Source: a virus
Lineage: Duplodnaviria > Caudoviricetes
DNA: 62,501 nt
Reading direction: 5' to 3' (one strand)
IMG/VR virus record: IMGVR_UViG_3300031772_000033
Span: 1 to 62,501 of that record
Shown: positions 1-46,917 of the stretch, piece by piece
How positions within the stretch are numbered: position 1 is the first letter of the stretch
Layout of the letters: every line of letters begins with the position of its first letter
Program-made: the position numbers and the translations under genes
The notes under the pieces: model-generated
What the model was told of the DNA's origin: nothing
The model's database searches: none
What the model saw: the letters and a program-made list of their open reading frames with translations, nothing else

Positions 1-254
1 GGTTTCGGACACAACTTCACTTTATTAAGAGGCTATTAATGCTCAAAAAGATTCTCCTTTTCTCCTTCTTGTTTTGTGGTTTGGGTTGTTCTCAGGACGC
101 GGGGCCGAAAAGCCCCGCACCTGAGAGTGTTCCTTACGCACAATATCAGGAAACAAAAGACGCGCTCCACGATTACGTTTTAGAAAATCGCAGAGCCGCA
201 GAACTTAACAAAAAACTTATTAATGACATCAATGTTTTTGTCAATGAACTCAAA
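1..254. repeat. Terminal direct repeat, left copy (circular assembly overlap)
   Basis: Matches 62248-62501 except G127 vs C62374. Confidence 0.97.
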
Positions 255-359
255 GCAATAAAAACAGAAGATCCGGAACTCGACAAGGCATTGGCAAAAT
301 ATAACATTCAAAGAAATCCAGTCAAGTCAATCATTCCGCCTAAGCCAAAGGAAAAATAA
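39..359 (+). CDS. Exported or lipoprotein-like coiled-coil protein
   Basis: MLKK, hydrophobic stretch, GLG/C; follows the 61142 fibre-like gene on the circle. Confidence 0.6.
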   Translation: MLKKILLFSFLFCGLGCSQDAGPKSPAPESVPYAQYQETKDALHDYVLENRRAAELNKKLINDINVFVNELKAIKTEDPELDKALAKYNIQRNPVKSIIPPKPKEK

Positions 360-3792: not shown

Positions 3793-5754
3793 ATGGCCGG
3801 TTCTGAAAAATTAGGTGAAGTCTACGTTGAGATTCGGGCGAAGATAGACAAACTTGAAGCCGAACTAAAAAAGGCACAAGGTACGGCACAAACTTCGGCT
3901 AAGAAAGTTGAGAATGAATTCAATAAGATTTCGCCCAAGGCTACGGGTATAAATAAATATATGGGAGATGCAACCGCTCAAACGGGAAAATTAGGCCATG
4001 CTCTTGACGGGTTGCAATCTAAATTTACCGGCGTTAGTGTCGCCTCGCTTTCAATGGCCGTTGGTGTTGGCCTTCTTGCCGGGGCACTGAAACGTGCCAT
4101 AACATCCGCCTTTGAATATCAAGATTCAATCGTTGATCTGTCTGAGCAAATGGGATTTCAAATTAGCACTACTCAGGCATTAGATTATATGATGAAGAAA
4201 GAAGGTAAGTCCGTGGAAAGCGTATCGGCTGGATTTACTATTTTAATGAGACAGATGCAAGAAGCAAAAACCAAGGGCGGCGAAGCTAAGGCAATGTTTG
4301 AAAAGTTAGGAGTTGCATTATACGATGACAATTTACAGGCCAGGTCAACTGAAGCAGTTTTTATGGATGTTAATGAAGCAATACATAATACCGTAAATCC
4401 ATCGGAAAGAGCAGGAAAGGCACTCGAAGTTTACGGAAGAGCATGGAAAAATATGGCTCCTCTTTTCCTCGAAGGTAAAGCAGGTGTTGCGGCGGCAAGC
4501 GCGGAACTTAAGGCGTTAAACGTGAATATTGACGTCGAAAGAACCAAGCGATATGAAGAAGCAGTTGCAAGAATGAAGATGACCTTTACCGGTTTAACCA
4601 CTCAGGTTTTCAGGGCGACTTTTGCGATTGGTGATTATTTAGGCAAGACGGCATTTTTCAACTGGCTCTTAATCAAGAATTTAGGAAATTATGGGAAAGC
4701 GGTTAAGGAATATAATGCAGCAAATGCCGAAGTAGATGCAGCGGAAAAGAAAAGATTCGATGATCGTATGGCAATGATAAATGCGGCAGGCGCGCAAAAA
4801 GAAGGACTAACGGAAGATGAGGTAAAAACAGAACAGAAGGTCGCAGAGGAAAAGGCAACCGCAATTAAAGCGTATTATGATACTATTAAATTTCTATCTG
4901 CCGATTATATGAATTACCGGATAGCTCAGATAAATATAGAGGCAATGGCATTAAAAGCAAAAGCCGGAAAAGAAATTGACATTGAAACTTGGAAATATAA
5001 TGAATTAAAGAAATTAGACAAGGAATATAAGGATTTAATTGGAGGCGTTGGCGCAAGACGTGGCGGGAAACCGGAACGCGGACTTCCTTCCGGAATTCCT
5101 GTCCCTTACATGCCAGGTGGTTCTAATTTGGGACCGGGTGGTGAAAATATAGATATAATAAAAGCCGAAGATGCGCAAAAACGATTCGAAGATACTTATA
5201 ATTTTGCAGAAGACAAAACATCCGCGTTTTTTAATGGAATGCTTCAAATCTCCATACAAACCGACAATAGGGTTGCGCAGGGTTTTGTCAATATGGCAAA
5301 CGCATTCACGGCTGAAGTTGAACGCATGATGGCAAAATGGGCGGCATTTCAGGCCTTGCGAGCAATTTCAAGTATACCGGGTTTGGGTTTTCTTTCGGCT
5401 TTAATTCCGGGTGGAGCGTCCGGAGGTGAATTCGTCGGCACTTCTTCGGGCGTTCGTAAGGTCGCGTCGTTCGCGGGCGGTGGTTCGTTTACTGTCCCGG
5501 CGGGCTTCAATAATGATTCCTTTCCGATGATGGTACAAACAGGCGAGCGCGTGAGCGTTACGCCTTCAGGAGGGACTGGAAAAGATATTCAAATGTTAAG
5601 TGAAATTAATAAATCAATTAAAATAATGAATCTTAATAATATGGCTATGCAGAAACAAATTAATGTCAATGCACAAGTGAGCGGAAATCTTCAGGGACGT
5701 GATCTTCAACTGGCAGTTGAAAAAAGTCAACGTTTCGATGACCGGACAAGATAA
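3793..5754 (+). CDS. Tape measure protein
   Basis: LGEVYVEIRA N-terminus; Ala-rich helical body; FAGGGSF...GERV C-terminal motif. Confidence 0.9.
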   Translation: MAGSEKLGEVYVEIRAKIDKLEAELKKAQGTAQTSAKKVENEFNKISPKATGINKYMGDATAQTGKLGHALDGLQSKFTGVSVASLSMAVGVGLLAGALKRAITSAFEYQDSIVDLSEQMGFQISTTQALDYMMKKEGKSVESVSAGFTILMRQMQEAKTKGGEAKAMFEKLGVALYDDNLQARSTEAVFMDVNEAIHNTVNPSERAGKALEVYGRAWKNMAPLFLEGKAGVAAASAELKALNVNIDVERTKRYEEAVARMKMTFTGLTTQVFRATFAIGDYLGKTAFFNWLLIKNLGNYGKAVKEYNAANAEVDAAEKKRFDDRMAMINAAGAQKEGLTEDEVKTEQKVAEEKATAIKAYYDTIKFLSADYMNYRIAQINIEAMALKAKAGKEIDIETWKYNELKKLDKEYKDLIGGVGARRGGKPERGLPSGIPVPYMPGGSNLGPGGENIDIIKAEDAQKRFEDTYNFAEDKTSAFFNGMLQISIQTDNRVAQGFVNMANAFTAEVERMMAKWAAFQALRAISSIPGLGFLSALIPGGASGGEFVGTSSGVRKVASFAGGGSFTVPAGFNNDSFPMMVQTGERVSVTPSGGTGKDIQMLSEINKSIKIMNLNNMAMQKQINVNAQVSGNLQGRDLQLAVEKSQRFDDRTR

Positions 5755-7022
5755 TGGCAACGAATCCTTATTATACTACAATTAACTTTCCAGTTGAAAC
5801 TCTTGGAACGGGTGAAACTTGGCAACTTATTTTAAAAATAACAACAGCTGTTTCGGGTGATACGGTTTCGGAAGATTCTTTCGATCATGGACTCACAATA
5901 ACGGATCATGGAACTTTGTCGTGGGAATATGATGTTGATAATCTGCTTTTAGTGCCGGGAGAAACACAATTAAAACTTGCCGATACGGAAAATTATTTAC
6001 ACGATTTTCTTTTTGCAATATCAACGATTTCGGATGCAACAGACAAAAAATTTGAAGTGACAATAAAAGTTGATACCGTCGAAGAATTTACAGGATATGT
6101 ACTTGAAGATGATTTATCATATGATGGAGTTACAAAAATAATTTCATTCTCAGCAGCATCCCAAATAACATTACTTAATAATACACCACTTTATGAAACG
6201 GGAGAAGCCATAAAAGATCCGATAGGTTATGGGGCAAATTTGACATCATATTACACAATAACTCAACTTATTTCTGATATTTACAGTTTTATGGGAGTTT
6301 CGAGTGGTTCTTTTTGGCAGGATTGGACATTTGGAGATGAAGATGGGACTGAAAGTATAACATTTGGTTCGTTGGAAATGCAACCAGGCGAAATTTATAA
6401 CAATTTATATATACAATTAGAAAATTTGGGTGATGTATTAAAATGTTTCGCAAATACCTTTTGTTGCAGAACAGGAATTAGAGACAATACACGTTTTTTC
6501 TTTGTAAAAAATAAATATTATAGTACGGTTTCTTCGCAGACGATTGTCCCATTTGAATATGATAAGGAATTCAAATATCCTAAAACACAATATTGTAAAT
6601 ATAGTTTTTATGAAGATGAAACAGCAACAGCGAAAAGTCATAATACCGGAGATTTTACGAATTTAGATTCTTCTAAAATAGAACGGACGGTTATTCCGTA
6701 TGGATATTACATCGATCCAATATATTATGCGAATATGTATTATGATAGCGGGGGATTTAAAAAACATATTTATCGCGCTAAAGACCCTATTTTTTGGGAT
6801 ACATATGCGTCTATTCCTCAAATATCTACTTCGGTTCAATGGATTACACGTCAGGACATGAGATATTTAATGGTACATAAATTTAAAGTTAAGGGTTTTA
6901 CTTATGATTTAACTACTACGGTTTTATATGATTCAAAATATTTTCAAATTACTTCCATGAGGAAAAACTGGAAGGCCGGATATACTGAAATGGAATGCTT
7001 TTACTGTGCGGCGGTGGCATAA
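5754..7022 (+). CDS. Tail tip/hub protein
   Basis: Directly after the tape measure; acidic, aromatic beta-type composition. Confidence 0.6.
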   Translation: MATNPYYTTINFPVETLGTGETWQLILKITTAVSGDTVSEDSFDHGLTITDHGTLSWEYDVDNLLLVPGETQLKLADTENYLHDFLFAISTISDATDKKFEVTIKVDTVEEFTGYVLEDDLSYDGVTKIISFSAASQITLLNNTPLYETGEAIKDPIGYGANLTSYYTITQLISDIYSFMGVSSGSFWQDWTFGDEDGTESITFGSLEMQPGEIYNNLYIQLENLGDVLKCFANTFCCRTGIRDNTRFFFVKNKYYSTVSSQTIVPFEYDKEFKYPKTQYCKYSFYEDETATAKSHNTGDFTNLDSSKIERTVIPYGYYIDPIYYANMYYDSGGFKKHIYRAKDPIFWDTYASIPQISTSVQWITRQDMRYLMVHKFKVKGFTYDLTTTVLYDSKYFQITSMRKNWKAGYTEMECFYCAAVA

Positions 7023-7441
7023 TGGCTATCTTCGGCACAGGCGCACCCAAGATCGTGAGTGGCGCGATAACGGTTGAACTGGATTACGCGGTTGTCCTCA
7101 AAAGTGAACCAGATGAAAGGTCGTTCGTTCAGGAAAACAAGTTGACAGGTGCGGACGGGCATGTTGATCGTGGTTATCATTGGGATTTTGAAATGCGTGA
7201 ACATATTTATAAATACGCAGATCCAATGGCGAAGTATTTAGCTCTGGTTGCATTGCTCGGAACCGAAGTAAATGTATTTCCGCATAGAGATGAACCGGCT
7301 TTGTCAAATGCATCAGGCGTGGTTCCGTTTCTATTTACTGAAATTGTCCCTGAATATCTGGAAACGGTTTCATATCGGGATGCGTTGGTTTTAAAGTTCA
7401 CAAGTTTGGCGTTTGTTGATTTATCATTATCATTAAGTTAA
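7022..7441 (+). CDS. Tail tip (Dit-like) protein, paralog 1
   Basis: Starts MAIFGTGAPKI; paralogous to 7451. Confidence 0.55.
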   Translation: MAIFGTGAPKIVSGAITVELDYAVVLKSEPDERSFVQENKLTGADGHVDRGYHWDFEMREHIYKYADPMAKYLALVALLGTEVNVFPHRDEPALSNASGVVPFLFTEIVPEYLETVSYRDALVLKFTSLAFVDLSLSLS

Positions 7442-7450
7442 GAACATGAA

Positions 7451-7948
7451 ATGGCAATATTTGGAACAGGCAGTCCGAAAATCATTACAAGCGCAAGCGT
7501 GGAAATCACGCTTACTTGTGCGAAAGTATTAAAAGATGAACCTGTATTTGACAACATCATTCATGAAAATCCGGTTTCAGGGGAACGGGTGTTTCTTGCC
7601 AAGGGTTACAGGTGGGAAGTACAACTCATGGCCTATATTTATAAGGACGCAGATCCCAAAGCATTGTATACATCCATCAACACGGCACTTTATGATGAAG
7701 TGACATATTATAGGCATTTAGACGCGGAACCAGTTTGCGATTCAGGTGGTTCCCCGGTTACATTCTGGTTAAAGAAAATAACTCCTGTTTACGTGGAAAC
7801 GGTTACATATAAGGATGCTTTAATATTGGATTTGGTTTCATTGAAGTATGTTGATTTAAGCAAAGCGGTATTCGGATATATTTCGGACGACACAACTGGC
7901 GGTCATCTCGTTGACGATGAGACAGGCGGAGCAATAACCACAGGATAA
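7451..7948 (+). CDS. Tail tip (Dit-like) protein, paralog 2
   Basis: Starts MAIFGTGSPKI; shares YIYK.ADP and ETV.Y.DAL motifs with 7022. Confidence 0.55.
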   Translation: MAIFGTGSPKIITSASVEITLTCAKVLKDEPVFDNIIHENPVSGERVFLAKGYRWEVQLMAYIYKDADPKALYTSINTALYDEVTYYRHLDAEPVCDSGGSPVTFWLKKITPVYVETVTYKDALILDLVSLKYVDLSKAVFGYISDDTTGGHLVDDETGGAITTG

Positions 7949-7951: not shown

Positions 7952-10309
7952 ATGAAAAAACTACTTTTAATATTTTTGTTGTGTGTTTTCTCTGGGGTAT
8001 CTTTGGGTGCGGCGGACATTGCGGTTTCCAATCTCACGCATTTGCATACGCTTGGGGATTCGCTTCTGTTCGTTTCGTCTTATCGGACAAGTGCGGTTAA
8101 TTATACGAGACTGTTTTCTTATTGGGCCTTAAAACGTGCGCTCGCGGATACTGGGTTGACATATACAAAGAATAATAGTACGGGTTTACGTCTTGGACTT
8201 AATGTTATTAAGCGATGGCATTTAAATTCAAATGTTGTGGACGGAACTACTATGAGTTTAAATACCACTTCCAATGCAATTCAAATCAAGACGGACGGAA
8301 TAGACAGTACAAGAATGAAAGTTAATTCCATTCCTTCGGATAGGATTGTTGACAATTATCCGGGTGTTTATATTACGCCAACTTTTTATTGGAATTCAAC
8401 AAATGATACGGTAAAATGGGATGCGGGATATGTAATTCGAGGAACATTAACCACGGAAAGCAATAATTGGACAGCATATATAGCAGGTTCTCAGGCCGTG
8501 GGAGAGGCTGAATTGTTGGCAATGAATATAACAGACGGAACGATAGCTAAGAGAGCTTGGAATAGTGCAACCAATAAATATACACGAGGGAATAAATATA
8601 GAGTTCTTGCTTATCATTACGGCGGACTTCATACTATTGCGCAAGAATTAGATTCAAAGACATATCAAAGACATGCTGATTTATTCAATGCGGCATATCA
8701 TAAATATGAAAGTACCTATATTACACCAGTCTTTTATTGGAATTATAACTACACAAAAGTCTGCTGGCAGGCCGGAACCGTGATAAGAACAGGTGCGGAT
8801 TGGACGGCTTTCGGTGCGGATTCCGTAGCAATTGCAACATCTCAAATATTAGTGATGAATGACAGTAGTGCAACATTAGCGGTCTATGATTGGAACGGCG
8901 GATCAACGCCTTTTTTGAATTCAACCAGAAACAAACAAAAAGTGGTTGCATATGTTCTCGGTGGTAACCGATATATTGATCCGTCTTTGAATCATGATAT
9001 AGGAGATCAATATAATACTCATTATAATAGATATGAAAGCGTTTTTATTTCTCCGTCTTTTTATAGAACAGGACATACGGGAAATACAATTAAATGGGAT
9101 GATATATGGATTGTTGGTAAAGATCCTACGATTCACGCATGGACCAAAATTGATGCAGATGGAACCGGGATAACACTTTCGGCAGATTATACGCTTTTGG
9201 CGATTGATTTGTATGCTGGAACGGTAATTGTAAAACAATGGAACGCAGATACAACTCCCTATATTAGAGACCCAAGATATAGAGTTATCGCATTTCATAT
9301 TACATCAACAAATACGGTTATTGTGCCAGCCTATGAAAATCTTGATTGGCGGGAAAGCGTTGACGATGCTATCGAGGGATTAACGGCACTTACGGGTGGA
9401 CAATGGGACGGTGACTCATTAGTTTGGCTTGGTACGTCAATACCCGCCGGGGCGGATTATCCTTCAATAGTTTGTTCTAATGTAGGCGCGATACTTGTTA
9501 ATTTATCCCAAGGATCGTCTCACGTTAAAACACAATTGGATACATCCATAAAAAATTATTCCGGCGATTGGACGGCTTCACTTTCCCAATTATCCGAAAC
9601 CATTGCAGAGAAACAATTTGCCATAGATAGTTTTGCCGTTATCAGGCCATTATTACAAAATAATCCTCCTACCGTTTCGGCAATGGCGGCGGATTCGGGT
9701 GGTATTCAAACAACAATCAAGAATTGGAGTTATGAATATCTGATAAAATCTTACGTTGACACGGCAGATGCGGCTTTTATTTCAAAGGCTGACTTGATAG
9801 TATTCGATCATGGTTATAATGATGCGCCGGATTCAAGTGTTTATACCTTAGCGGAATTGATTAATTCAAGAGATTCGTGGAGAACGGGATACGCGGACTC
9901 AGTTGCGGCGAGTAGGAATCGAAAGAATTATATTTCGGCAATGAATTATATACTTGATAAAATTTACGAAAAAGACCCATATCAAAGGATATTACTAATA
10001 GGTCATTATTATAATTATGCAAATCAATGGTTAATTCCAACACAGGAAGAACTTGCGGAATATTGGCAAATACCGATCTGTTTAGTTCATAAAAAGATGA
10101 ATTTTACAGATCAAAAAGTTACCGGGAGTCAGGCCTTTTGGGCTATATCACCCTGGAGTCTTTATACTGCTGGACAGAATACCGGCGAAGACATGACACA
10201 GGAAAATGTTTATATACCGGATCGGGTTCATTTACATACAGATCCAAATTGCCGTGCGGATAGTTTGGTTGCGAAAGTAATAACATCATTTGTAAAAGAA
10301 GTTTTTTAA
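7952..10309 (+). CDS. Signal-peptide-bearing spike/fibre protein with C-terminal SGNH hydrolase
   Basis: MKKLLLIFLL signal; three (Y/F)I(T/S)P.FY repeats; WLGTSI, DHGYND and DRVH blocks. Confidence 0.75.
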   Translation: MKKLLLIFLLCVFSGVSLGAADIAVSNLTHLHTLGDSLLFVSSYRTSAVNYTRLFSYWALKRALADTGLTYTKNNSTGLRLGLNVIKRWHLNSNVVDGTTMSLNTTSNAIQIKTDGIDSTRMKVNSIPSDRIVDNYPGVYITPTFYWNSTNDTVKWDAGYVIRGTLTTESNNWTAYIAGSQAVGEAELLAMNITDGTIAKRAWNSATNKYTRGNKYRVLAYHYGGLHTIAQELDSKTYQRHADLFNAAYHKYESTYITPVFYWNYNYTKVCWQAGTVIRTGADWTAFGADSVAIATSQILVMNDSSATLAVYDWNGGSTPFLNSTRNKQKVVAYVLGGNRYIDPSLNHDIGDQYNTHYNRYESVFISPSFYRTGHTGNTIKWDDIWIVGKDPTIHAWTKIDADGTGITLSADYTLLAIDLYAGTVIVKQWNADTTPYIRDPRYRVIAFHITSTNTVIVPAYENLDWRESVDDAIEGLTALTGGQWDGDSLVWLGTSIPAGADYPSIVCSNVGAILVNLSQGSSHVKTQLDTSIKNYSGDWTASLSQLSETIAEKQFAIDSFAVIRPLLQNNPPTVSAMAADSGGIQTTIKNWSYEYLIKSYVDTADAAFISKADLIVFDHGYNDAPDSSVYTLAELINSRDSWRTGYADSVAASRNRKNYISAMNYILDKIYEKDPYQRILLIGHYYNYANQWLIPTQEELAEYWQIPICLVHKKMNFTDQKVTGSQAFWAISPWSLYTAGQNTGEDMTQENVYIPDRVHLHTDPNCRADSLVAKVITSFVKEVF

Positions 10310-10326
10310 TTTAATCGGAGGATAAA

Positions 10327-10791
10327 ATGAAATTCAAAAGTTTAATATTAATCCTGTTCTGCGTGGGGCTTTACGCGCAAGGCGTGCATCAAGACATCAA
10401 TGTTCTAACGCCCGAAGGCAGTTCAACATTCAGAATCAAGTATAATGCATCTGACACTTCGGCGGTTTACCATACCTATGAAATAATGAGCGCGCGGTTC
10501 TGGGTGGGCGATTCAATCGGCGGAGCGACTGATTCGGCATACGTTACTTTCATACTGCAAATTGGCCCTGGCGATAATGCTTCTGGAGTCATGGCCGGTT
10601 ATACGACCGTTGAATCGTGGGTAGTCTCAACCGATTCCACGTTTTCAACTCAAATGATTACAGACAATGCAATCCCGAATGGTTCGCATTTCAGGTATAT
10701 TTTAACTGGAAGTACAACCAACAGACAGGAATATTCGGGGTCATTGGCAAAGATTCTTCATATGAATTATGAAAGTGATCCGAGAAATTAG
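10327..10791 (+). CDS. Exported beta-rich protein
   Basis: Signal peptide ending LYA/Q; DSI, DSA, DST sequons. Confidence 0.75.
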   Translation: MKFKSLILILFCVGLYAQGVHQDINVLTPEGSSTFRIKYNASDTSAVYHTYEIMSARFWVGDSIGGATDSAYVTFILQIGPGDNASGVMAGYTTVESWVVSTDSTFSTQMITDNAIPNGSHFRYILTGSTTNRQEYSGSLAKILHMNYESDPRN

Positions 10792-10850
10792 AAAAATCAT
10801 TTTCTTTTAAAGAAAATGAAATTAAAATAAACAAAATCAATTTATAACAT

Positions 10851-10905
10851 AGAGGCGTTTAATGCCCGACCGTCCGCAAGGATGAATCGGGTTTATTTTT
10901 GGAGG
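10851..10905 (+). promoter_or_regulatory. Leader hairpin motif, copy 1
   Basis: AGAGGCG..GCCCGA..TCC-GCAA-GGATG..TCGGGT..GGAGG; similar to 57242-57301. Confidence 0.6.
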
Positions 10906-10909
10906 AAAT

Positions 10910-12727
10910 ATGAAAAAATTAATTATCTTTTTGACATTTCTGCCCTTGTTTATTTTCGCACAAGGGCCATTCGGACATGGTATCAATAAGGATTCGACTT
11001 GGGCAGTAGTCGGAGTGGATACGTTGGAACCATTAAATAATTCTACAATTTACATGCAACATTTCACGGTAGACACGGCGGTTGTGCAAAAGTACATTCA
11101 AGAAAAACGTATTACTCGGGTGGATTCGCTGACCAGATGGGTGCGGGATGGAGATACGTTGACGATTGACGCAAGTAAAGATTTACGTTTGCTTTCGTTA
11201 CGTGTTGGCGGAGTAATGAAATTCCAGGTGGATTCAGCGGGGAATTCCATGACTGCCGGAAAGGTTACAACCAATGACTCTCTTGCTAATGTCAAAGGAA
11301 TCCGTACCGAAGGTATTAGTTTACTTAAAGGTAAGGTAACTACGAATGATTCGCTTGCAAATATTAAAGGAATCAGGACAGAAGGGATCTCCTTACTGAA
11401 AGGCAAGGTCACGGCCTCGGATTCAATCGTGGTTACGAAAGGTATCCGTAATGAAGGTCCAAATCTTTTCAAAGGCAAAACAATTCAACGTGATACATTG
11501 CAAGTCAATTCTTTTGAAAATGTAGGTAATGCGAATGCAGGTGCACTTGTTTCTCCCATGACAGTTACTACTAATGCAATTGGTACAATGTCCACTACGG
11601 CGGCCACGGCAAATGCTTATGGATTGTCTTTACGTAATATGACGCCTGCAATTAATGGTACGCAACAGGACAGTCCTCCTATTAGATTCAGAGGATATGG
11701 TTATGGCACTACTGCAAGTACAAGTCAAAGTGGGGATTGGCGTATATATAATCAGATGACACAGAGTACAGTTCCAGCGAGTAAGTTGATGTTTGACTAT
11801 TCAGCAAATAGTGCAGCTTATGTAAATGTATTTAATGTAAGAAAAGATGGACTTATATATTCAGCTTCAGATATTACTACAATTGGAGCATTAACGAGTT
11901 ATCCTGTTGTATCTTCATCTTCAACTGATGGCATTGTGGGCTATTCAAGTGCAGCGGCTTCTGCGGGCGGCACTATTAGAATGTCTCCGCGTGTTCGTCT
12001 AACCGCTAACGTCTGGGATTCTACCGCAACCGCCGCAAGCAAGACGCAGAACTTTACCCAAGAAGTCATCCCTGTCTCCGGTGGCGGTGGCGGTGGAGTC
12101 CCCGCTCCTTCTGCTTCAACCGCAAGACTGCGTTGGAGTTTTGACCATAATGGGGGTGGGTATAGTGAGATTCTTGCGTTGACTGGCGATGGGCGACTGA
12201 TAAAGACGAATGGTGCAACCCTCAACAATACAGGGTATAAACTCACAACCGTAAACTCAATAAGCGGGTGCAATAAAACAACCGTGACCTTTACAGCTTA
12301 TAGTTTGGCAATCACAGACGCTGGAGCGAACGGGGCTCATGGTTCAGTTAAACTTATTGATTTCCCCGAAGGCCATATCAAACTGATCGGAGCGCACCAA
12401 GTCCTTACGCTTACAAGAGTAGGTACGGCAATTGACGCTGACGCTGTTTTCGACGCAGGCATAGGATCGATAACTGCTGGCGTGGATAATGAGGAACTGG
12501 CTGGCACGGAAACCGAGATAACCGGAGTTGAGGACGAGGCTGTTCTTGCTGCCGGAACTCTTACTTTTGATACGCTGAACGGCGTTGACCAACTACTTGA
12601 TGGATCAGGAACTTCATCGGATGCGTGGCTTAATGTTGCTGTGGCTGCCGCTGACTGTTCTGGTAACGATGCGTTTTTAGTTACCGGAACCGTGACGATT
12701 ACGTGGGTATTACTTGGAGACGATTAA
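10910..12727 (+). CDS. Signal-peptide-bearing fibre-like protein
   Basis: Signal ending IFA/Q; 24-aa repeats [18 protein letters not shown]; beta-rich C-terminal domains. Confidence 0.75.
11258..11500 (+). repeat. 72-bp coding repeat (three copies plus a partial)
   Basis: Units start at 11258, 11330, 11402 and 11474; synonymous divergence between copies. Confidence 0.85.
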
Positions 12728-12728
12728 T

Positions 12729-13673
12729 ATGAAACGGTTCATATTTATAATCCTATTTCTGCCTGTTTTATTGCTTGGGCAGATGACCTCCGAATTCATC
12801 CCGATAAAAGGTTTATCTCATTGGGATGAACAAAGCGGGAAATGGTATATCGAATTTGATCGTTTTAAGTTGGCATATAAAATTCCAAGTATAAAAGTAT
12901 ATAACTTATCTAATATAGATACTACCGGAATTATTGAAAATAAAGAATATGGTTATAATAATATCCTCGATGATTGGAAACCGAAAGAAGTTTTTTCTGC
13001 GGGTGGAACAGGTCCTCCCGGTCCCCAGGGCGATCCGGGTGAACCGGGACCACAGGGCGAGCAAGGCATACAAGGTATCCCCGGAAACGACGGCGCACCG
13101 GGATCAAAAGGTGACACAGGGGAACAGGGAATTCAAGGCATTCAGGGCATACAGGGTCCACCGGGAGCGGACGGTAGTGTGGTTTTGGTCCTTTCCCTTA
13201 CGTCAAACGCTCCCACAAACAGTACCGCGACAGGCGTTGAGATTCTTGGGCTGAATAAAACCTTAACAGCCGGAACCTACGTCTTTAAATATTACATAAT
13301 TTACCAAGCAGGCGCCGCGACAACAGGAGTTCAGTTCGGAGTAAATTATACAGGCACAGCCAAGGCCTTCGTCGTCAATATGTCTTTTGCCGGAACGGGA
13401 ACTACTGCCTCTACGGGTGCGGCGTCTCAGGTTGCTTCGGGAGCCACAGGGAATGTCGGGGAAACCTTCGCCGCAAGAGCGGAAAGCACAACCGCGCCGA
13501 ATCTTGGGGCGACCGTGAGCGTGGACGCACTTGGCAGTAATATGTTAGCCATAATCGAAGGGGTCATGGTTGTGAGCGATGGCGGTGATTTGGAATTATG
13601 GCACGCCTCGGAAGTTGCGGCGGCCTCGACCGTGATGGCCGGAACATCTCTGATTCTTACAAAAACAAATTGA
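12729..13673 (+). CDS. Signal-peptide-bearing collagen-like fibre protein
   Basis: [18 protein letters not shown]; about 19 Gly-X-Y triplets; beta-sandwich-like C-terminus. Confidence 0.85.
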
Positions 13674-13680
13674 GGACATT

Positions 13681-14064
13681 ATGAAAAGACTATTATTTTT
13701 ACTTTTTCCGTTTGCGCTTTTCGGACAAGGTCAAATAGAGGAACCGATTGAAGATCCTATACCGATAGTAAAGACACAACTCATTATTGATCACCAGAAT
13801 GTAATAATTGATGCGGTTCAGTATGTGGATGCAAAGTTGGTCTACGAATGCAATCCGATCATGATAAAGAATTGCGATAAGAAAAAATTCGTAACCAGAG
13901 TTGATGCGATCAAGACAACCGCTCAAAAGTTGACCGTGGAATACAGGGATCCAAGACTCGGAAAGATGTCTCAGGTGTTTCTCGGAGCCATGCCGGTGGT
14001 GACAGAAATAAAAGAAGACAATATTATTATGGATTCGGGCGAAAATATAATTATTTTAAAATAA
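13681..14064 (+). CDS. Exported hypothetical protein
   Basis: MKRLLFLLFPFALFG/Q signal. Confidence 0.7.
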   Translation: MKRLLFLLFPFALFGQGQIEEPIEDPIPIVKTQLIIDHQNVIIDAVQYVDAKLVYECNPIMIKNCDKKKFVTRVDAIKTTAQKLTVEYRDPRLGKMSQVFLGAMPVVTEIKEDNIIMDSGENIIILK

Positions 14065-14094: not shown

Positions 14095-14463
14095 ATGATG
14101 ATTGAAAAAAAAGAAGACGGAAACGGCGGAACCCATCTTTCCGCTCATCTTAAAAGAATCAAACCGGAATATATAGGACCTTTTGTTTCTTTGCTTGTGG
14201 CATTCTTTTCAATAGCTGGTTTTTTTATTGCGATTGGGATTAATAAGGCCACAAGAGATTCGGAAATTGAAACCCTGAAACAAAACTGCATTATCATTAA
14301 TCAAAGTATCGGGAAATTAGAAGAAGGACGTAGAGATAACCGGACGAAAATCGACACCCTGATTATACGTACAAGCGTTCTTTCTGTTCAAATGGGACAA
14401 TTAATAGATAATCAGTCTAAACAGTATAATCTTTTAATGGCACATATCATACCCAAGAATTAA
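14095..14463 (+). CDS. Single-TM coiled-coil protein (holin-like)
   Basis: One hydrophobic helix plus coiled coil at the end of the late operon. Confidence 0.5.
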   Translation: MMIEKKEDGNGGTHLSAHLKRIKPEYIGPFVSLLVAFFSIAGFFIAIGINKATRDSEIETLKQNCIIINQSIGKLEEGRRDNRTKIDTLIIRTSVLSVQMGQLIDNQSKQYNLLMAHIIPKN

Positions 14464-14486: not shown

Positions 14487-14518
14487 AACGGTCTGCAAAA
14501 TATCGCAGGCCGTTTTTT
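14487..14518 (+). terminator. Rho-independent terminator ending the late operon
   Basis: AACGGTCTGC/GCAGGCCGTT stem with T run. Confidence 0.85.
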
Positions 14519-25876: not shown

Positions 25877-26368
25877 ATGGGATGCAAAAACAAAAATATA
25901 ACACAAGGAGAATTAAGGAGAATAGTCGATTATGATCCCGAAACTGGAAAATTTTACTGGAAGGCGAGAGGACAAGGCAGAAAAATTGGATTTCCGTGCG
26001 GTAATTTAAATAATGGTTACATCAGAATTTATATAAATGGAATGTCTTATATGGCTCATCGTCTCGCTTGGTTATGGAAAACCGGTTATTTCCCTGAAAA
26101 AAGCATGGATTACAAGAATGGAATAAGACATGATAATAAAATATCTAATCTTAGACTTGCTACTCATTCGCAAAATCAGGCGAATAAAAAAGGTATGAGT
26201 AAATATGGAGTTAAGGGAGTTTGCAGGGATCGTCACAAATGGGTTGCCAGAATAATGCATGATAAAGTAAGGTATTATTTAGGAACTTTTAATACATTAA
26301 AAGAAGCTAATAGAGCATATTTTAAGGCAGCATTGAAATATCACGGCGAATTTGCGAGAAGAAAATAA
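25877..26368 (+). CDS. HNH-AP2 homing endonuclease-like protein with catalytic His replaced by Tyr
   Basis: YDPETGKF, AHRLAW, DYKNG..DN.ISNLR, YLG.F...EA..AY..AA...HGEF. Confidence 0.85.
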   Translation: MGCKNKNITQGELRRIVDYDPETGKFYWKARGQGRKIGFPCGNLNNGYIRIYINGMSYMAHRLAWLWKTGYFPEKSMDYKNGIRHDNKISNLRLATHSQNQANKKGMSKYGVKGVCRDRHKWVARIMHDKVRYYLGTFNTLKEANRAYFKAALKYHGEFARRK

Positions 26369-26567
26369 CAACACGCAAAGAAAGTGGAGGCATGAAATGA
26401 TTACCTTAAAAGAATTAAACACGAATAAAAAATATCGTAGCCTGTCCATCGAGAAACTTGCCAGACTCATTGACGGTTATAGGTTTACGTTTGTGGATTA
26501 TTCAAAATTACCAGGTGAAGGACCAATAGGCAAAGCCGAAAACTTAAAAAAGAAATGGAGGCATGAA

Positions 26568-27014
26568 ATGATCCGAAGAAAGAACATCCTGCCGGCGGTG
26601 ATCTGTTTCATCATTGCCATTTTTGGTACTTGGTGGATGGCTGAGAATGTCTATCCACAGACACCAACAGTCACCCTCGAATTTACCTGGACCAATACCA
26701 ACACGACAACTGTTGGCTTTGACATAATGGAGGTGTACGCTCCACCAGACACTAACCGAATGTGTTTCTATGTAAACAGCACAGCTGGATTACTACCAAA
26801 CTGTGCCGGTGATTGTAGCTTTGAGACAATAGCACAAGCTGATAACAAGGTGCATTACTACCGCATGAGCGCCTACGATGCAAGGGCAGGTAAGGAATCA
26901 CCCTGGTCAAATGTTGCAAGCTGCCTTCTGCCAATATCAGGAACTACAGCACCTCCAGTGCAGAGCGGTTTGACTGCGCCGATTAATTTTAAGGTTGTGG
27001 TAAAGAAACAATAA
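26568..27014 (+). CDS. Exported or membrane-anchored FN3-like protein
   Basis: Hydrophobic N-terminus ending P/Q; YYRMSAYD...ESPWSN FN3-type C-terminus. Confidence 0.6.
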   Translation: MIRRKNILPAVICFIIAIFGTWWMAENVYPQTPTVTLEFTWTNTNTTTVGFDIMEVYAPPDTNRMCFYVNSTAGLLPNCAGDCSFETIAQADNKVHYYRMSAYDARAGKESPWSNVASCLLPISGTTAPPVQSGLTAPINFKVVVKKQ

Positions 27015-27557: not shown

Positions 27558-27757
27558 AATATTGGGAGTGAGGTAAGTTATGGCTAAATATTTTGGAGGT
27601 TTATTGCAAGGCATTGTACTGACAGTTACTATTGGAGGTGCCATTGTTTTCAAGTTTCCCGTGTTAGTTGTTGCAGCAATACTTGCGGGCCTTTTTACTG
27701 TGTGCGCTTGGATTGTTTGCATATTTGAAAATTGGGATTAAACGTGAGGATAACGCC

Positions 27758-28081
27758 ATGAACGTAGAAGTGACTGATGATCCAAGACCTATGTCTCGAA
27801 TTCTACAGGAAACCGCTGCCGAACTGGAACTGGCGAAAGGTGAAATTAAGTCACTCAGGCTTTCACTTGAAAGTGAAACGGAACGTATCGGCAGAGATGC
27901 CATGCGGTACATGACCGAGAGGGACAGGCTGAAGGCGGTCAATGCGGAGTTGATTGAGGCATGTGAATTGGCGTTGATGGTAGGTACATCATATCCAAAA
28001 GGCACAGGAGCAAGAATGGATTCAAAAACAGAAGAAGTTTTACGAAATGCTGTTACCAAAGCCAAGGAGATCCAGCCATGA
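27758..28081 (+). CDS. Hypothetical coiled-coil protein
   Basis: GAGGA RBS. Confidence 0.65.
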   Translation: MNVEVTDDPRPMSRILQETAAELELAKGEIKSLRLSLESETERIGRDAMRYMTERDRLKAVNAELIEACELALMVGTSYPKGTGARMDSKTEEVLRNAVTKAKEIQP

Positions 28082-30051
28082 CAAGCAGGCAAGCCGATTT
28101 GATTCTGCAAGAACTTGACATTTATTCAATGCTCGAAAATACGGAAGAAGTTGATTGTTTGGCTGAAAATAATCCAGAATTACTCGATGCTTATAAAGCA
28201 ATGATTAAATTTGCAAAGCGTAAAGATAAGGGATAAGGAGTGAGAGATGATCAAACTGAAAATAACATGGAAAAAGTTTTCCGAAATATGCCCGCACTCT
28301 TACGATTACAACGGGAGACGATGCTTGATACCTCGACACAATTTAGCTTGTAGTGAAAAATGTACACAAAAAAATTGTCCGTTATTGGTAAGGGATAAGG
28401 AGTGAGACGATGACTTGGGCTAAACCCGATCTATACTACGGATTATACTGGTCAGGATTAAGCACAACCATTAAGAGGTTTTAAGGAAATGACCAATGAC
28501 GTGCGGCAGGCAAGCATAATGCTGTCCCTGAAGAGCCTCTGACGGATGCCAAGCATCTTGTTAAGCGCAACCCCTTGCCGAGAATTCCGGCTCGCACGTT
28601 TTCATTAACAGATTAAAGATGGAGGTTGAGATGACCGTTTTGGAATTTATTTTATACCCCGGACTGTTTACTGAATTACATGGCGGGAAGAAAGATGATA
28701 GAACTTCTGAATTGTTAAATAAGTTTGGCCGCGCACAACTTGGAATAGACGGAAATTGCGGGTTTGCGCTTTTGGGTGGAGATCTTCAAGAAGGAGAATC
28801 TGAATTTGTGGAAATAAAAGGCGATAAAATTGACGATCAATTAAGGGCTTGCAGTTTTGCATTAAACAAATTGCGAGAGCGCATTGATGCACCTGGTATG
28901 AGTTACTATTTTGGCCCAAGTCATCCGTACGGTAACTAACCCTACTCCGTAAGCGCGGGAGGGAGGAAAAGTGAGAAAAAATAAATGGTATGTATTACAA
29001 GATTCATATCATCTTGCCCTAATGGAAAGTCGTGAGTGCGGAGGTTGGACTGTGTGGCGGAGAATTTATATGCTAATAGCAAATACAATATATTATTATC
29101 AAGAACATTTTGAATGGCTAACAGAAAAACACGTGCGTTTTACTGGTGGAGGAAGAAATGAGTACAATAAATGTCCTCGCCGCTAAAATTATGTTACTTA
29201 CTATGATGATTTTTGTTGCATACCAAGAGGTGGCAAATAAAAAAATAAGCCACGATACATTAATAATCTGTTTAATAGTCATAATGTGTTTTTTGTCGCT
29301 TTTACAAGCCGTTACTCCATTGAAAAGCGCAACGAAGAAAAAAGTTTGCAGCATGTGCAAAGGCAAAAAAAAAGTTGATCTTGTCGGGCATGGCATAGGT
29401 CTCATGGGTGAGACGTGCCCGAAGTGTCACGGGACCGGGAAACGAAAGGGGAAAGCGTGAAAGCTTGTATGGGTTGTAAGTACGCCGTATGGGATCTAAC
29501 AAAAGTCGGTAGGCTTCATCCGTCTGGTGATGGACATTGTGAATATGCGTATAAATTACCGGAACTGCCAAATTCAAGGTATTGGATTATAAGCGATCCG
29601 AGACCAGCGGGCGGATATATATCAAGAAAAAAGGAGTATCCAAACCATTGCCCATATTATATGCGTCAACCCGCCCAATCAGAGAGCAAGGAGAAACCAT
29701 GAAACGCGTATTAATTTTCGCTGGAATGCAATTAAAAAAATTGGTAATTGTTACTACCGTAATAAGTCTCTTTATTGGATGGGTATATCTATTTGCACTT
29801 TCCCTGAAGCATGATTTATATATTCTCTCGGCCGCTTGGGTGCTACTTTCTTTTATTGCAATTTTTGGGAAGGAAATTACTGAGCGGATTCAATCTGAGT
29901 GGCACAAGGCTGGGGAGATCGAAAAGAAATGGAGCAAGAAATGAAAATTGAGATTGTATTATTTATTATAAGTATGACGGCTTTTTTGGTTTGGGGCTAT
30001 TGTTCTTATCTTTTATTGATAAGTGATCGTAAAAATTGGAGGAAGCAAGAA

Positions 30052-30360
30052 ATGAAACGTATATTGACCATTACTCTGCTTGCCACTATGCTGGCGGGAT
30101 GTAAGAAAGTACGGATAGAACAGGAAGTTAAAACTCAAAGTTTTATAAATTGTACTTATCGAGTTTCGACATGGCTTTGGATTTACGATTTTCCTTGGTG
30201 TTTAGGTAGTACAATCGAACACTCTTTTTATAATTATAATGTTACTAAAGATAGTGTTTGCGCCGTAAAGGTGAGACAACTTAAAGCAATGCTTCCGTAT
30301 TATATAAAAGCAAAACAGATACTCAAAGACGGTATTGATCCGTGTAAGGAGAGACCATGA
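30052..30360 (+). CDS. Lipoprotein
   Basis: MKRILTITLLATMLAG/C lipobox; GGAGG upstream. Confidence 0.7.
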   Translation: MKRILTITLLATMLAGCKKVRIEQEVKTQSFINCTYRVSTWLWIYDFPWCLGSTIEHSFYNYNVTKDSVCAVKVRQLKAMLPYYIKAKQILKDGIDPCKERP

Positions 30361-30761
30361 AGAAGCTTATAATCTACATTTTTTTGTTGATGTTCTCAGG
30401 ATGTGCATGGGGACAGATTCTAAGCGATCCAGGCATTAATGACACGCGAGAGAATATTCAAACAGAGAATACTCAGATAAAGATATTTCGTGCCAATGAT
30501 CCTTATGATATGGGCCGCTCGTTCGAGCGTTGGCTTAGACTTTCCGACCTTGTGGATTATTGGGATGAGTACAAGGAATGGACGAAAGTGAACCCAATAA
30601 AATATGCAACTGGTACGTGGACCTGTGTTTTGGATTCTATGAGCAACGGTCGAATAATAGGGAGAAATTATCCAGATTCTTGCACGATGCAAAGACCGAT
30701 TAGTGCGGAAGATTTTATTGAGAACTTTCTACGCGGCAAACTGCGAGAGGCAAAGCCATGA
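30357..30761 (+). CDS. Exported hypothetical protein
   Basis: Signal ending AWG/Q (or SG/C lipobox). Confidence 0.65.
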   Translation: MKKLIIYIFLLMFSGCAWGQILSDPGINDTRENIQTENTQIKIFRANDPYDMGRSFERWLRLSDLVDYWDEYKEWTKVNPIKYATGTWTCVLDSMSNGRIIGRNYPDSCTMQRPISAEDFIENFLRGKLREAKP

Positions 30762-32517: not shown

Positions 32518-33312
32518 ATGTTTGATCTTTACAAAATGAAACAATGTCTGAGATGTAAAAATGAATTTAAATCTAATTCGATGATTCACGGTGATGATGT
32601 TTGCTCTACCTGTGAAAGAATGAACAGTATAACATTTTGGTTGCCAAAACTTCAAAACGTACAATGCCCTATTCCTAAAACAATAATGATAAATGCGGAT
32701 ATTGATTTAGGCCCGATGGTTGACGGGGTAGAAGTCGAAGGAACGGATAGATTTTTTAATGAATTAAATAACGCCGCAAATATATTAGGTTTTCCTGTAT
32801 TTCTTAGAACTGAAATGTTAAGCAATAAGCATGACTGGATAAATTCTTGCTTTATTGAAAATGAAAAACAATTTCCGAGTCATATAGTAAATTTACTTGA
32901 AATGAGCGCAGTAGTAACAATTGACCGATTCAAGGATTGCAATTTTTTTGCTATCCGAAAAATGATTGAAACCGAAAAAGCATTCACATATTTCAATGGA
33001 ATGCCAATCACGAAAGAAATTAGAGTTTTTATACGAAACGGCAAAATAGAATGTCAACATCCTTATTGGCCTAAAGATGTTTTTGAAAAAATAGACGATA
33101 CGCTTATTAAAAAAGTACAAGAATTGAATGATGATGATAAAGATATAATTAATAAATACGGAAATTATTTAGCAAAAATATTTCATGGATGGTGGTCTGT
33201 TGATTTTCTTAAATCAAAGAAAGGCGATTGGTATTGTACGGATATGGCCATCGGGGAAAGTTCATGGCATGATGAAAAATGTATTAATAAAATCAAGGAA
33301 CATTTGATTTGA
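32518..33312 (+). CDS. ATP-grasp-like (R2K-type) protein
   Basis: PVFLRT, EIRVFI, WSVDF......WYCTDM. Confidence 0.6.
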   Translation: MFDLYKMKQCLRCKNEFKSNSMIHGDDVCSTCERMNSITFWLPKLQNVQCPIPKTIMINADIDLGPMVDGVEVEGTDRFFNELNNAANILGFPVFLRTEMLSNKHDWINSCFIENEKQFPSHIVNLLEMSAVVTIDRFKDCNFFAIRKMIETEKAFTYFNGMPITKEIRVFIRNGKIECQHPYWPKDVFEKIDDTLIKKVQELNDDDKDIINKYGNYLAKIFHGWWSVDFLKSKKGDWYCTDMAIGESSWHDEKCINKIKEHLI

Positions 33313-35793: not shown

Positions 35794-36386
35794 GACCATG
35801 CCCTAAGCCAACTCCACGCGAAAAGAAGTCGAAGCCATTGCGTAAGCCATACGTGAGGCCGGAAACAATCAAGCATTACTTTGGACTTCCTATAATTATT
35901 AAACGGCTGAACGAAAGAACCGAGTCAATTTATCCATGTTCAAAGCAAAAACAACTTGCATGGAAAGATTCTGATTGTTTAGTAGCTCAATGCGATGATT
36001 TATGGCGTGAGATTATAAAGGCAAAGGCAGGCTATCGATCAGAACTTTCAGGCAAAATGGCTGACCCGGAAAATGGGATTTATCTTCAATCGCATCATAT
36101 TTTACAAAAGCCCAATCGAAGGTTAAGATATGAACTGGAAAACGGAATTTGCATTACCAAGGGTGAACATAATTGGGGAGCACACGGGGGAAGACAAGAG
36201 GAATTTCGAAGAAAGATTCAGGCGATACGGGGTGCGGATATTTTTGATAGACTCTATTTACTGAAAAACCAGAAACCTCCGGACATGATAATGCTAAAAA
36301 TTTATCTCACGAAGGAATTGGAAAAATTAAAAGTTGAAACCCACAAAGGACAAAAACAAGCAAAATCATCCTCATGGCAAGGATAA
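35790..36386 (+). CDS. NinG-like/HNH nuclease
   Basis: D.LW...IK, QSHHI, LRYELENG.C....H. Confidence 0.6.
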   Translation: MRPCPKPTPREKKSKPLRKPYVRPETIKHYFGLPIIIKRLNERTESIYPCSKQKQLAWKDSDCLVAQCDDLWREIIKAKAGYRSELSGKMADPENGIYLQSHHILQKPNRRLRYELENGICITKGEHNWGAHGGRQEEFRRKIQAIRGADIFDRLYLLKNQKPPDMIMLKIYLTKELEKLKVETHKGQKQAKSSSWQG

Positions 36387-36801
36387 GATGATTCATGCAA
36401 AATCAAGAAAGTGTTGTAAATGCAAAATACAACAGGCTGTTGCTTTTTGGCAGTGAAATGGATTTGCAAGATTTAAAATGCGAAGCAGAAACAGACGCGG
36501 GGAAACCATGTCGATATAAGCCGAAATTTATTTATAAGGTTGTGGCCGGGGATTGCCAGTTACTTTGCAGAAGACATGCGAAAAGATTTTTTAAATCGAA
36601 ATCAATCAGAAAAATAACGGAAAAATAAAATGGATCTACCTCCAAGATTTGATGCTTTATTTAAACATTTTAAGCAACCAGATTCAAGTGCTTGGTGTCT
36701 TGATTGCAAATGGAAAGGCAAGTTAAGCGAGACGAAATATAAAGATAAGACTCAGGTTTGTCCGGTGTGCAATGGATTCGTAAAGTGGTCGGAAAAATGA
36801 A

Positions 36802-36913
36802 TGCCGCCCGTGGCGAAATTATTAAAAGCTACCTGACAGAGGGCAGACCCCGAATAACCATGCCGGTTAGGCGAATAAGGGGCACTTGCGGGTGCAAATC
36901 CCGTCGGGCGGCA
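36802..36913 (+). ncRNA. tRNA-like RNA with aberrant core
   Basis: 9-bp closing stem TGCCGCCCG/CGGGCGGCA; TGGCGAAATT D-arm-like start; GCGGG-TGCAAAT-CCCGT T-arm. Confidence 0.6.
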
Positions 36914-36917
36914 ACAA

Positions 36918-36989
36918 GGGACGGAAGTGTAACGGTCGCACCTCTGGCTGTGGCCCAGAGAGCACTCGGTTCGACTCCGAGCCGCCCCT
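36918..36989 (+). tRNA. tRNA-His(GUG), atypical
   Basis: Cloverleaf: D stem GTGT/GCAC, anticodon arm TCTGG-CTGTGGC-CCAGA, T arm CTCGG-TTCGACT-CCGAG; A8, A4.C69, no CCA. Confidence 0.85.
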
Positions 36990-37017
36990 CAACGAATTTA
37001 AAAAAAAGGAGAATAAA

Positions 37018-41731: not shown

Positions 41732-41866
41732 ATTGATACAATCACGACAATATTTTTCCCTCAATTCTCCCTAAAAGACACAACAAATGACTATATAGCC
41801 ACTTTCAAATCAACAAATGTACATATACGGTGATTGGTTGTCAATTTTCTTTATTATATTTATACC

Positions 41867-45575: not shown

Positions 45576-45955
45576 AATATTTTATATTATTTATTATGTT
45601 ATTAATAAGCATGGTGAATGCACAAGTTATGTGCAAAAAATCGTGGGATTCTTGTGATGGAGCATTTTTCAAATATGATAAATCCGAACATTTAATCGGT
45701 TCCGCAATTTTATATCAAGGTTTTCGAACATATAATTGGGAACCTAAAAAGCGATTATTGTATTCTGTTTTATCTGGTTTTCTTTGGGAGGTTAAAGATT
45801 CGTTAATTTCTTATAAGGATTTTGGTAGAATGGGTGGTGATGGATTTGATTATAAGGATTTTTTGGCCGATTGTGCGGGTATATTCTTATCATATGAATT
45901 AGAAAAGATTCATATTAATATAACATTTAGATTATACCTGGAAAAGGAAATTTAA
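45572..45955 (+). CDS. YfiM/VanZ-like exported or membrane protein
   Basis: Signal ending VNA/Q; DKSEH, WEVKD, GF...D..AD..G. Confidence 0.65.
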   Translation: MKYFILFIMLLISMVNAQVMCKKSWDSCDGAFFKYDKSEHLIGSAILYQGFRTYNWEPKKRLLYSVLSGFLWEVKDSLISYKDFGRMGGDGFDYKDFLADCAGIFLSYELEKIHINITFRLYLEKEI

Positions 45956-46911: not shown

Positions 46912-46917
46912 AATTCA

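Follow-up and report, generated by a model that had tools for sequence, protein, structure and literature searches.

By the textbook account, tailed phages are put together entirely in the cytoplasm, and the question raised by the phage sequence described here is why the genes at its fibre position should start with export signals. The window analysed comprises positions 1 to 62,501 of IMG/VR record IMGVR_UViG_3300031772_000033 (Duplodnaviria; Caudoviricetes), 62,501 nucleotides on one strand. The element in question is a cassette of five consecutive late genes (7952–14064), together with a sixth gene, 61142–62275, in the head module. A first-pass annotation made from the letters alone had proposed that these genes encode virion appendages that mature in the periplasm and join the particle only at or after lysis. 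Export and periplasmic maturation of the cassette proteins now appear probable from their sequences; docking on particles at or after lysis is the leading, still tentative, reading of what follows. Genes are named by their first position, and the six are:

7952–10309, plus strand, 785-residue protein with a Sec-type signal, about three internal repeats and a C-terminal probable SGNH/GDSL-like esterase domain
10327–10791, plus strand, 154-residue protein with signal LYA/Q
10910–12727, plus strand, 605-residue fibre-like protein with signal IFA/Q, a conserved, sequon-rich N-terminal stalk, short tandem repeats and a jelly-roll tip at about 450–605
12729–13673, plus strand, 314-residue collagen-stalk fibre with signal LLG/Q, Gly-X-Y repeats at 92–149 and a C-terminal tail-fibre tip domain
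13681–14064, plus strand, 127-residue acidic protein with signal LFG/Q
61142–62275, plus strand, 377-residue repeat-built fibre-like protein with signal AIA/Q, right after the capsid gene

Signal-type N-termini were sought with a heuristic of our own. It asks for a basic n-region, for a core free of charges that spans at least 9 residues (7 or more of them hydrophobic), and for small residues at −3 and −1. Applied to the 111 plus-strand open reading frames (ORFs) of at least 50 residues, it flags 12, two of them doubtful (27668–28081 and 29158–29460), and all five cassette proteins and 61142 pass, as the first-pass annotation had described. The cassette is the longest flagged run, and a run of five arose in 0.06% of 200,000 label shuffles (p ~6e-4). 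The predicted junctions are GLYA/QG in 10327, FIFA/QG in 10910, LLLG/QM in 12729, ALFG/QG in 13681 and YAIA/QP in 61142, with the A/Q or G/Q sitting right at the end of the hydrophobic core in each of these five. The N-terminus of 7952, MKKLLLIFLLCVFSGVSLGA/AD, has no Gln at +1 and is the one exception among the six, which bears out the earlier claim that five of the six proteins carry this residue. Gln occupies +1 in 8 of the 12 flagged ORFs, among them four of the five cassette proteins plus 61142, a count that is not independent and is somewhat favoured because the rule prefers Gln when choosing among candidate sites. No signal-type N-terminus was detected by the heuristic in the capsid protein (59946), the tube proteins (2242 and 2640), the tape measure (3793) or the tip proteins (5754, 7022 and 7451), which agrees with the earlier description of these as signal-less. 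The six proteins are thus predicted to be genuine substrates of Sec and signal peptidase I.

The signals are also present in homologues. All five non-self matches to 10910 in a word-indexed search carry an A/Q signal, and the 10910 alignment contains only seven invariant columns, among them M1, A17 and Q18, while bodies are 33–47% identical and tips are swapped. An exhaustive search yielded 982 relatives at E values up to 1e-3; the best 151 other relatives comprise 31 with a signal and Gln, 18 with a signal lacking Gln, and 102 with no signal. Most signal peptidase I substrates in Bacteroidetes expose Gln, a pattern known as the Q-rule (PMC5837995), and together with the invariant A/Q junction of the 10910 family this supports the suggested fit to the rule. 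A Bacteroidota host and real cleavage are the simplest reading of the Q-rule pattern and the conserved junctions, and the phage is most likely a siphophage of ~62.2 kb with such a host. The call of host phylum derives from the Q-rule pattern, as no host genome or prophage was found when 5754 and a family alignment were searched against genome contigs. One homologue, on a contig of phage size, bears the label Neomegalonema sp.

It is very unlikely that the signals do not work, whether through wrong starts, uncleaved helices inside the particle or a late shut-off of export, with fibres assembling in the cytoplasm. The starts lie 3–17 nucleotides past the preceding stops, and the signal and Ala-Gln junction are conserved in homologues that otherwise share 32–47% identity. 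Gln comes right after the core in four of the five cassette proteins, and 31 of the 49 10910 homologues with a signal-like N-terminus show it too, which would be unexplained unless the site is cleaved. Two features do fit non-working signals, namely the missing Gln of 7952 and a Met at residue 19 of 12729. The ATG at 12783 (codon 19 of 12729–13673) lies exactly at the predicted mature end (LLLG/Q-M), and initiation there might conceivably yield a signal-less isoform of 12729; none of the other proteins has a Met at the junction.

The C-terminal sorting domain used in type IX secretion (T9SS; TIGR04183 type) was not detected in any of ten signal-bearing proteins searched against NCBIfam and Pfam at E values up to 0.1, and the proteins were rejected as type IX cargo on this ground. 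By known routes, signal-bearing proteins without such a domain would stay periplasmic until lysis.

What these proteins are is best seen in 12729, 10910 and 7952, which domain homology assigns, as predictions, to fibre or receptor-binding types, in keeping with the nature first proposed for them. The collagen repeats of 12729 match PF01391 at residues 92–149 (36.9 bits, gathering score 27.2), and the protein matches 31 PHROG families, mostly tail fibre. Its C-terminal domain has 85 homologues, of which 10 are flagged as signal-like (4 with Gln) and 75 are unflagged; many of the unflagged proteins begin like classic signal-less tail fibres, and a distant phage (L014) carries the domain on a signal-less protein. 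S/Q signals are present on the two homologues closest to 12729 (85% and 65% identity), whose contigs measure 59 and 57 kb.

The jelly-roll tip of 10910 was modelled with confidence by AlphaFold2 (AF2), with 10-residue block means of ~94–98 for residues 461–600 and of 86–87 for the edge blocks 451–460 and 601–605. Values outside the tip fall below 60, and the whole-protein mean is 58.3. Foldseek aligns the tip with viral jelly-rolls, a cyanophage short tail fibre domain, CBM4, CBM15, Bdellovibrio Bd1399 and the lambda gpJ tip, and also with uncultured Caudovirales proteins. Bd1399 is probably one of the mosaic adhesive trimeric (MAT) fibres of Bdellovibrio. The text of the paper on these fibres (PMC10769870) does not mention Bd1399. 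Protein 10910 matches phrog_11997, and its tip domain, which occurs in 982 proteins, constitutes a 201-residue signal-less protein adjoining an annotated tail fibre gene in Pseudomonas phage Rollin. Across the family the N-terminal part is conserved and the tip is swapped, a mosaic pattern that looks typical of attached fibres.

For 7952, described in the first-pass annotation as an SGNH spike, the SGNH part is probable. SGNH enzymes are defined by blocks I (G-x-S), II (G), III (G-x-N-D) and V (D-x-x-H), and SGNH-like blocks GTSIPA, GSS, DHGxND and DxxHxH are invariant in all five aligned sequences (7952 and P0002–P0005). Profile support is sub-threshold: homologue P0003 matches Lipase_GDSL_2 at E 0.0014 (19.6 bits, cut-off 32.9), 7952 itself has no Pfam match, and a profile match to Protein Data Bank entry 4q7q is weak (E 0.47). 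The AF2 model, built from a five-row alignment, failed, with a mean predicted local distance difference test (pLDDT) score of 36.5, too poor for a fold search; the identity as an esterase is consequently only probable. The orthologue P0002 (60% identity) has a signal, likewise lacking Gln, and three distant homologues have ordinary fibre-like N-termini.

The remaining members of the set are less distinctive. Protein 61142 shares an N-terminal repeat with 10910 (42% identity over 43 residues) and its only Pfam match falls below the threshold (PF08077, E 0.052, 14 bits, cut-off 25), with no PHROG or NCBIfam family and no phage match. Neither 10327 nor 13681 matches a family in Pfam, PHROG or NCBIfam. 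Each follows a fibre gene, the usual place of a chaperone, and carries a signal, so the set would share one compartment; from this position, either may possibly be a partner or chaperone of the preceding fibre.

The cassette lies directly behind the tail genes and inside the late operon, as its earlier placement at the fibre position implied. The neighbouring features are:

5754–7948, plus strand, signal-less tail tip genes: a 422-residue tip or hub-like protein and two paralogues
7022–7441 and 7451–7948, plus strand, Dit/tube-like tandem paralogues, 42% identical, both starting MAIFGTG
14095–14463, plus strand, 122-residue protein with one membrane span and a coiled-coil-like tail, last gene of the late operon, with a weak match to phrog_3999
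14487–14514, plus strand, terminator-like hairpin closing the late operon (10-bp stem with 6 G-C pairs, T-run)

Gaps in and before the cassette measure 3, 17, 118, 1 and 7 nucleotides, the start codon of 7952 being 3 nucleotides past the stop of 7451–7948. The G+C fraction of the cassette, 0.40–0.48, is within the range of genome windows (0.34–0.51). The hairpin at 14487–14514 is the only strong one of the region, and none comparable was found inside the cassette, where four plus-strand matches have 5-bp stems and no T-run; terminator-like matches in total are at shuffle level (10 vs 9.5). Promoter-like matches do not exceed shuffles, in a search that covers Bacteroidota promoters only crudely, and the Bacteroidota −7 motif TAnnTTTG is not enriched (55 matches vs 61 expected). 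A moron, with its own control and foreign composition, was considered and rejected given the ordinary G+C, the lack of a terminator or promoter above shuffle level and the tight operon. These observations support the view that the fibre-type genes are integral late-operon genes and not a moron-like island. The last gene, 14095–14463, is a candidate holin or i-spanin.

This setting bears on the idea that the set acts on the envelope of the infected or lysogenic cell, by modifying nascent surface polysaccharide in the periplasm through the esterase, by blocking receptors against superinfection or as adhesins on the cell surface. Precedents exist among phages: signal or lipoprotein genes for lambda Lom and Bor, T5 Llp and Cor stand beside tail-fibre or lysis genes. 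Each of those products is one small lipoprotein or outer-membrane protein, and its gene often has its own promoter, whereas the present genome has six proteins of up to 785 residues that are built like fibres and show no moron features. A glycan-modification island is present in the phage as well. For Porphyromonas gingivalis phages, genes with Q-rule signal peptides were reported and read as modifiers of the host envelope, in particular the outer membrane (Matrishin et al. 2023, PMC10367356). There too, predicted cleavage by signal peptidase I exposes Gln, and the authors infer use of general secretion by the host. Those phages are temperate and the genes in question are five of unknown function (PMC10367356); here six genes of fibre or receptor-binding type occur in one genome in which no signal-less alternative was found. 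The MAT fibres of Bdellovibrio bacteriovorus (Caulton et al. 2024, PMC10769870) are Sec-exported, phage-fibre-like trimeric adhesins with a conserved beta-rich domain next to the signal and variable tips. The likeness is one of architecture. In contrast to the present proteins, which are phage-encoded and in which a Pfam scan found no S74 domain, MAT fibres are encoded by the cell and serve on its own surface or on its vesicles, and an S74 chaperone-protease domain closes many of them (PMC10769870). An action on the envelope is nevertheless unlikely. The five cassette proteins have neither a T9SS domain nor a lipobox and so no known route across the Bacteroidota outer membrane, no integrase or repressor was seen among 30 scanned non-structural proteins, leaving a lysogenic role unsupported, and late-operon genes without moron features would have little time to remodel the envelope before lysis.

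The genome is most likely complete and circularly closed, judging from its ends. The first 254 bases repeat as the last 254 (1–254 and 62248–62501) with one mismatch, at position 127; IMG/VR classes the record as linear and 66% complete. A terminal repeat of this kind makes a closed genome of ~62,247 bp likely, with every gene in view. On the circular map the capsid gene (59946) is followed by 61142–62275 and then by 39–359, and all long ORFs are on the plus strand. No signal-less fibre-like gene was found in the ORF list of this genome. The tip genes at 5754–7948 match no PHROG or Pfam family. The whole 422-residue tip protein aligns with part of viral proteins of 645–779 residues (template modelling score 0.73–0.76), so it may lack a binding extension. 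Paralogues 7022 and 7451 have Dit-like or tube proteins as structural look-alikes and look like bare Dit/tube folds; they follow the tip protein instead of preceding it, an unusual order for a siphophage tip.

From these data we infer, on sequence evidence, translocation, cleavage, pyroglutamate formation and glycosylation of the cassette proteins, in the following order. Proteins 7952, 10910, 12729 and 61142, with the small partners 10327 and 13681, would form an exported fibre or receptor-binding set. The cassette genes, at the 3' end of the late operon, would share transcription with the tail genes, and their unfolded products would pass into the periplasm and be cleaved at A/Q or G/Q. A host cyclase would turn the exposed Gln into pyroglutamate, some of the proteins would probably be O-glycosylated on D-(S/T)-(A/I/L/V/M/T) sequons, and folding and trimerisation would take place in the periplasm beside the co-exported small partners. 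Breach of the inner membrane at lysis would bring the exported fibres into contact with cytoplasmically built heads and tails, and they would dock on the outside of finished particles as add-ons. Docking is favoured because the genome looks complete and no other fibre gene was found in it, the tip protein appears to lack an extension, the genes are coupled to the tail operon, the small partners are co-exported and 10910 is mosaic. This full chain is the reading that we place first, with confidence that falls short of even. The two-compartment route of the first-pass annotation holds up as regards signals, fibre-type domains and late-operon position; the joining of the particle is its tentative part.

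The glycosylation step can be compared with the sequences directly. General O-glycosylation in Bacteroidota acts on exported proteins. Its sequon is D-(S/T)-(A/I/L/V/M/T) (PMC8550257), and occurrences were counted against 500 shuffles of each protein. Observed and expected numbers are 10 vs 1.6 in 61142, 12 vs 3.4 in 10910, 9 vs 3.9 in 7952 and 3 vs 0.7 in 10327, and these four, all signal-bearing, are the most enriched ORFs of more than 100 residues; they hold 34 of the 72 sequons of the proteome in ~10% of its residues. An 83-residue ORF, 54002–54253, also ranks among the enriched (2 vs 0.2). Among the 151 homologues of 10910, the ratio of observed to expected sequons is 1.27 with signal and Gln (n = 31), 1.13 with a signal alone and 0.75 with no signal (n = 102), and four control motifs give no such separation. 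Ten sequons fall in residues 1–195 of 10910, and its three N-terminal relatives have 8–9 at largely aligned places. The glycan island of the phage encodes a family 11 glycosyltransferase. A family of putative fucosyltransferases is widespread among the O-glycosylation loci of Bacteroidetes (PMC8698959). With the counter-examples given below, the sequon evidence for O-glycosylation is mixed.

The signal pattern was also surveyed in other phages. Three other viral contigs (L002, L004 and L005) carry the 10910 tip domain behind a signal, so the pattern does recur. In L002 (genome G002, 91% complete), three consecutive signal-bearing genes lie between lysis genes and terminase, one of them encoding a 670-residue protein that is beta-helix-like by its repeat pattern alone. 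In L004 (G001, 79% complete), the signal-bearing homologue lies between capsid-like and connector genes, with two more signal-bearing genes upstream, and in L005 two such genes follow two capsid-like paralogues. Bacteroides phage B124-14 does not share the pattern, which therefore recurs in one set of uncultured phages and is not general for Bacteroides phages. A 244-residue ORF of G002 (35973–36707, minus strand, within L012) has a lipoprotein-like LVLSC and then PQGPKG, a collagen-type start, and looks like another exported collagen-like protein, from a different phage.

A number of these and other findings weigh against attachment to the particle. In 12729 the signal has replaced the classic fibre N-terminus, the end by which ordinary fibres are anchored. 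Compared with its orthologue, 7952 is least conserved over its first 100 residues (30–36% vs 48–82% elsewhere), which appears to reverse the usual fibre pattern. The repeat shared by 61142, in the head module, and 10910, in the tail module, means that gene position may not mark the docking site. Four ORFs of at least 200 residues without a family (359–1072, 26352–27014, 32518–33312 and 42288–42929) could hide a conventional receptor-binding protein. G001 and G002, both fully read, also hold signal-less fibre candidates, and their signal-bearing genes lie outside the tail module, after the capsid gene or in the lysis–terminase interval; this placement together with ordinary fibres suggests that the class may be accessory cargo. 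In B124-14, 3 of 59 ORFs are flagged and the annotated tail fibre is not among them. As to glycosylation, sequons in 12729 and 13681 are at or below expectation, the tip homologues are depleted (1 vs 3.6 in L002 5768, 2 vs 6.3 in L004 8453 and 0 vs 1.9 in L005 5306), and internal repeats inflate sequon counts. We are not aware of any tailed phage whose virion includes Sec-exported parts, and exported virion fibres are absent from the literature searched by title and abstract.

Much of this would fit proteins that are exported and matured in the periplasm and stay unattached after lysis, working as soluble lectins and an esterase on surface glycans. They would strip or mask receptors on neighbouring cells or debris against trapping of progeny, or open capsule or slime for the next infection, and periplasmic maturation (pyroglutamate, glycan) would make them durable outside the cell. 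Such free helpers are a possible explanation, though a doubtful one. Receptor-binding and esterase-type domains lacking a classic fibre N-terminus would suit them, as would the variable gene positions in four phage backbones, two with ordinary signal-less fibre candidates, and the poorly conserved N-terminus of 7952. That phages make free depolymerases which diffuse out of plaques is established (PMC6116005), and extracytoplasmic proteins are reported to become more stable through Q-rule processing (PMC10653852). Against this, it would be unusual for non-structural helpers to take up ~7 kb (11% of the genome), and the genes are packed behind tail genes with a 3-nucleotide gap and no promoter or terminator of their own in view. 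The phage would be left with no recognisable receptor-binding protein, and the mosaic pattern of 10910, with its conserved N-terminal part and swapped tip, is typical of attached fibres. Docking at or after lysis keeps its leading place. Its extension to a two-compartment lineage of Bacteroidota phages, in which all fibres pass through Sec, acquire pyroglutamate and, on dense sequons, host-type O-glycans and are snapped on at lysis, is doubtful. What remains of the probability falls to something other than the four readings considered.

Attachment from outside has known counterparts. T4 tail fibres, phage L Dec and lambda gpD are exterior parts that bind finished particles from outside in vitro. 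Unlike the proteins proposed here, they are cytoplasmic products and are normally added before lysis. Tailed phages also have late proteins that pass Sec before lysis and wait in the envelope, familiar as Sec-exported and signal-anchor-release (SAR) endolysins and spanins; in contrast to the present set these are lysis proteins acting on the wall, none being a fibre or virion part (PMC6116005). In the literature searched, no tailed phage was found to have export signals across its set of fibre-type genes, and no proposal that phage fibres reach host glycosylation via export. The claim that the route is new holds for exported virion fibres within that literature, and not for Q-rule phage genes as such, which were already published (PMC10367356).

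If the signals on all fibre-like genes work, they would either break the rule of cytoplasmic assembly or reveal a sizeable class of secreted, fibre-derived helpers. Pipelines commonly seem to take a signal peptide as the mark of a non-structural protein. The result would affect prediction of receptor-binding proteins in metagenomic phages and bears on host-range engineering of Bacteroidota phages in laboratory strains. Were the two-compartment reading true, virion appendages would wear the host's own protein glycan, and such O-glycosylation would have consequences for how stable the appendages are and how they are recognised in gut or sediment. Through the sequon lead, the question is open to a direct glycoproteomic test.

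The rest of the genome is that of an ordinary tailed phage in layout, with PHROG matches defining the modules:

51.5–62.3 kb, plus strand, head module
52058, plus strand, small terminase candidate, from PHROG-based module assignment
52420, plus strand, large terminase
54573, plus strand, portal
57250, plus strand, protease
59011 and 59541, plus strand, scaffold-like
59946, plus strand, major head protein
0.3–7.9 kb, plus strand, neck and tail module
1303, plus strand, Neck1-like
1819, plus strand, tail terminator
2242 and 2640, plus strand, major tail
3793, plus strand, tape measure
between tail and head modules, plus strand, replication and recombination genes (RecT, exonucleases, replication initiator, HNH endonucleases, methyltransferases, RNA ligase)

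Close relatives were not found. A megablast of 20 kb against phages gave no match; tblastn of 5754, 61142 and 12729 against phages gave none and that of 10910 one distant match, so that these nucleotide and tblastn searches of phages returned no cultured relative. No related locus was found for 7952, none for 5754 among viral or genome contigs, and none with one further alignment (A3).

Further signal-type N-termini outside the set are:

39–359, plus strand, 106-residue lipoprotein-like protein (GLGC/SQ), Pro-rich and then coiled-coil, after 61142 on the circular map
30357–30761, plus strand, FSGC/AWGQ
45572–45955, plus strand, VNA/Q
51584–52006, plus strand, 140-residue protein with a twin-arginine (Tat) type signal, STRRNFLKG followed by a hydrophobic core

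The lipoprotein-like signal attributed to 39–359 in the first-pass annotation is present, as a lipobox-like GLGC followed by SQ. Proteins 39–359 and 14095–14463 resemble the paired components of a spanin, or a holin, and their genes are ~14 kb apart. ORF 51584–52006 lies just upstream of the small terminase candidate, and the C-terminal half of its product has a match (E 7.8e-5) to a PHROG named head fiber protein. ORF 41834–42286 is DUF5675, and no endolysin was identified in the genome.

The glycan-modification island at 44117–48374 comprises two radical SAM proteins, a methyltransferase (DUF268) and glycosyltransferases of families 11 and 2, with the signal-bearing 127-residue ORF 45572–45955 in its middle, and may alter a host surface or protein glycan. 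A TnpB/Cas12f-like protein with OrfB_IS605 and TNB domains is encoded at 49274–50470. A tRNA-His gene (anticodon GTG, 36918–36990) overlaps the 5' end of ORF 36886–37926, whose true start is probably downstream, given this overlap and an RNA ligase match that begins only at residue 50.

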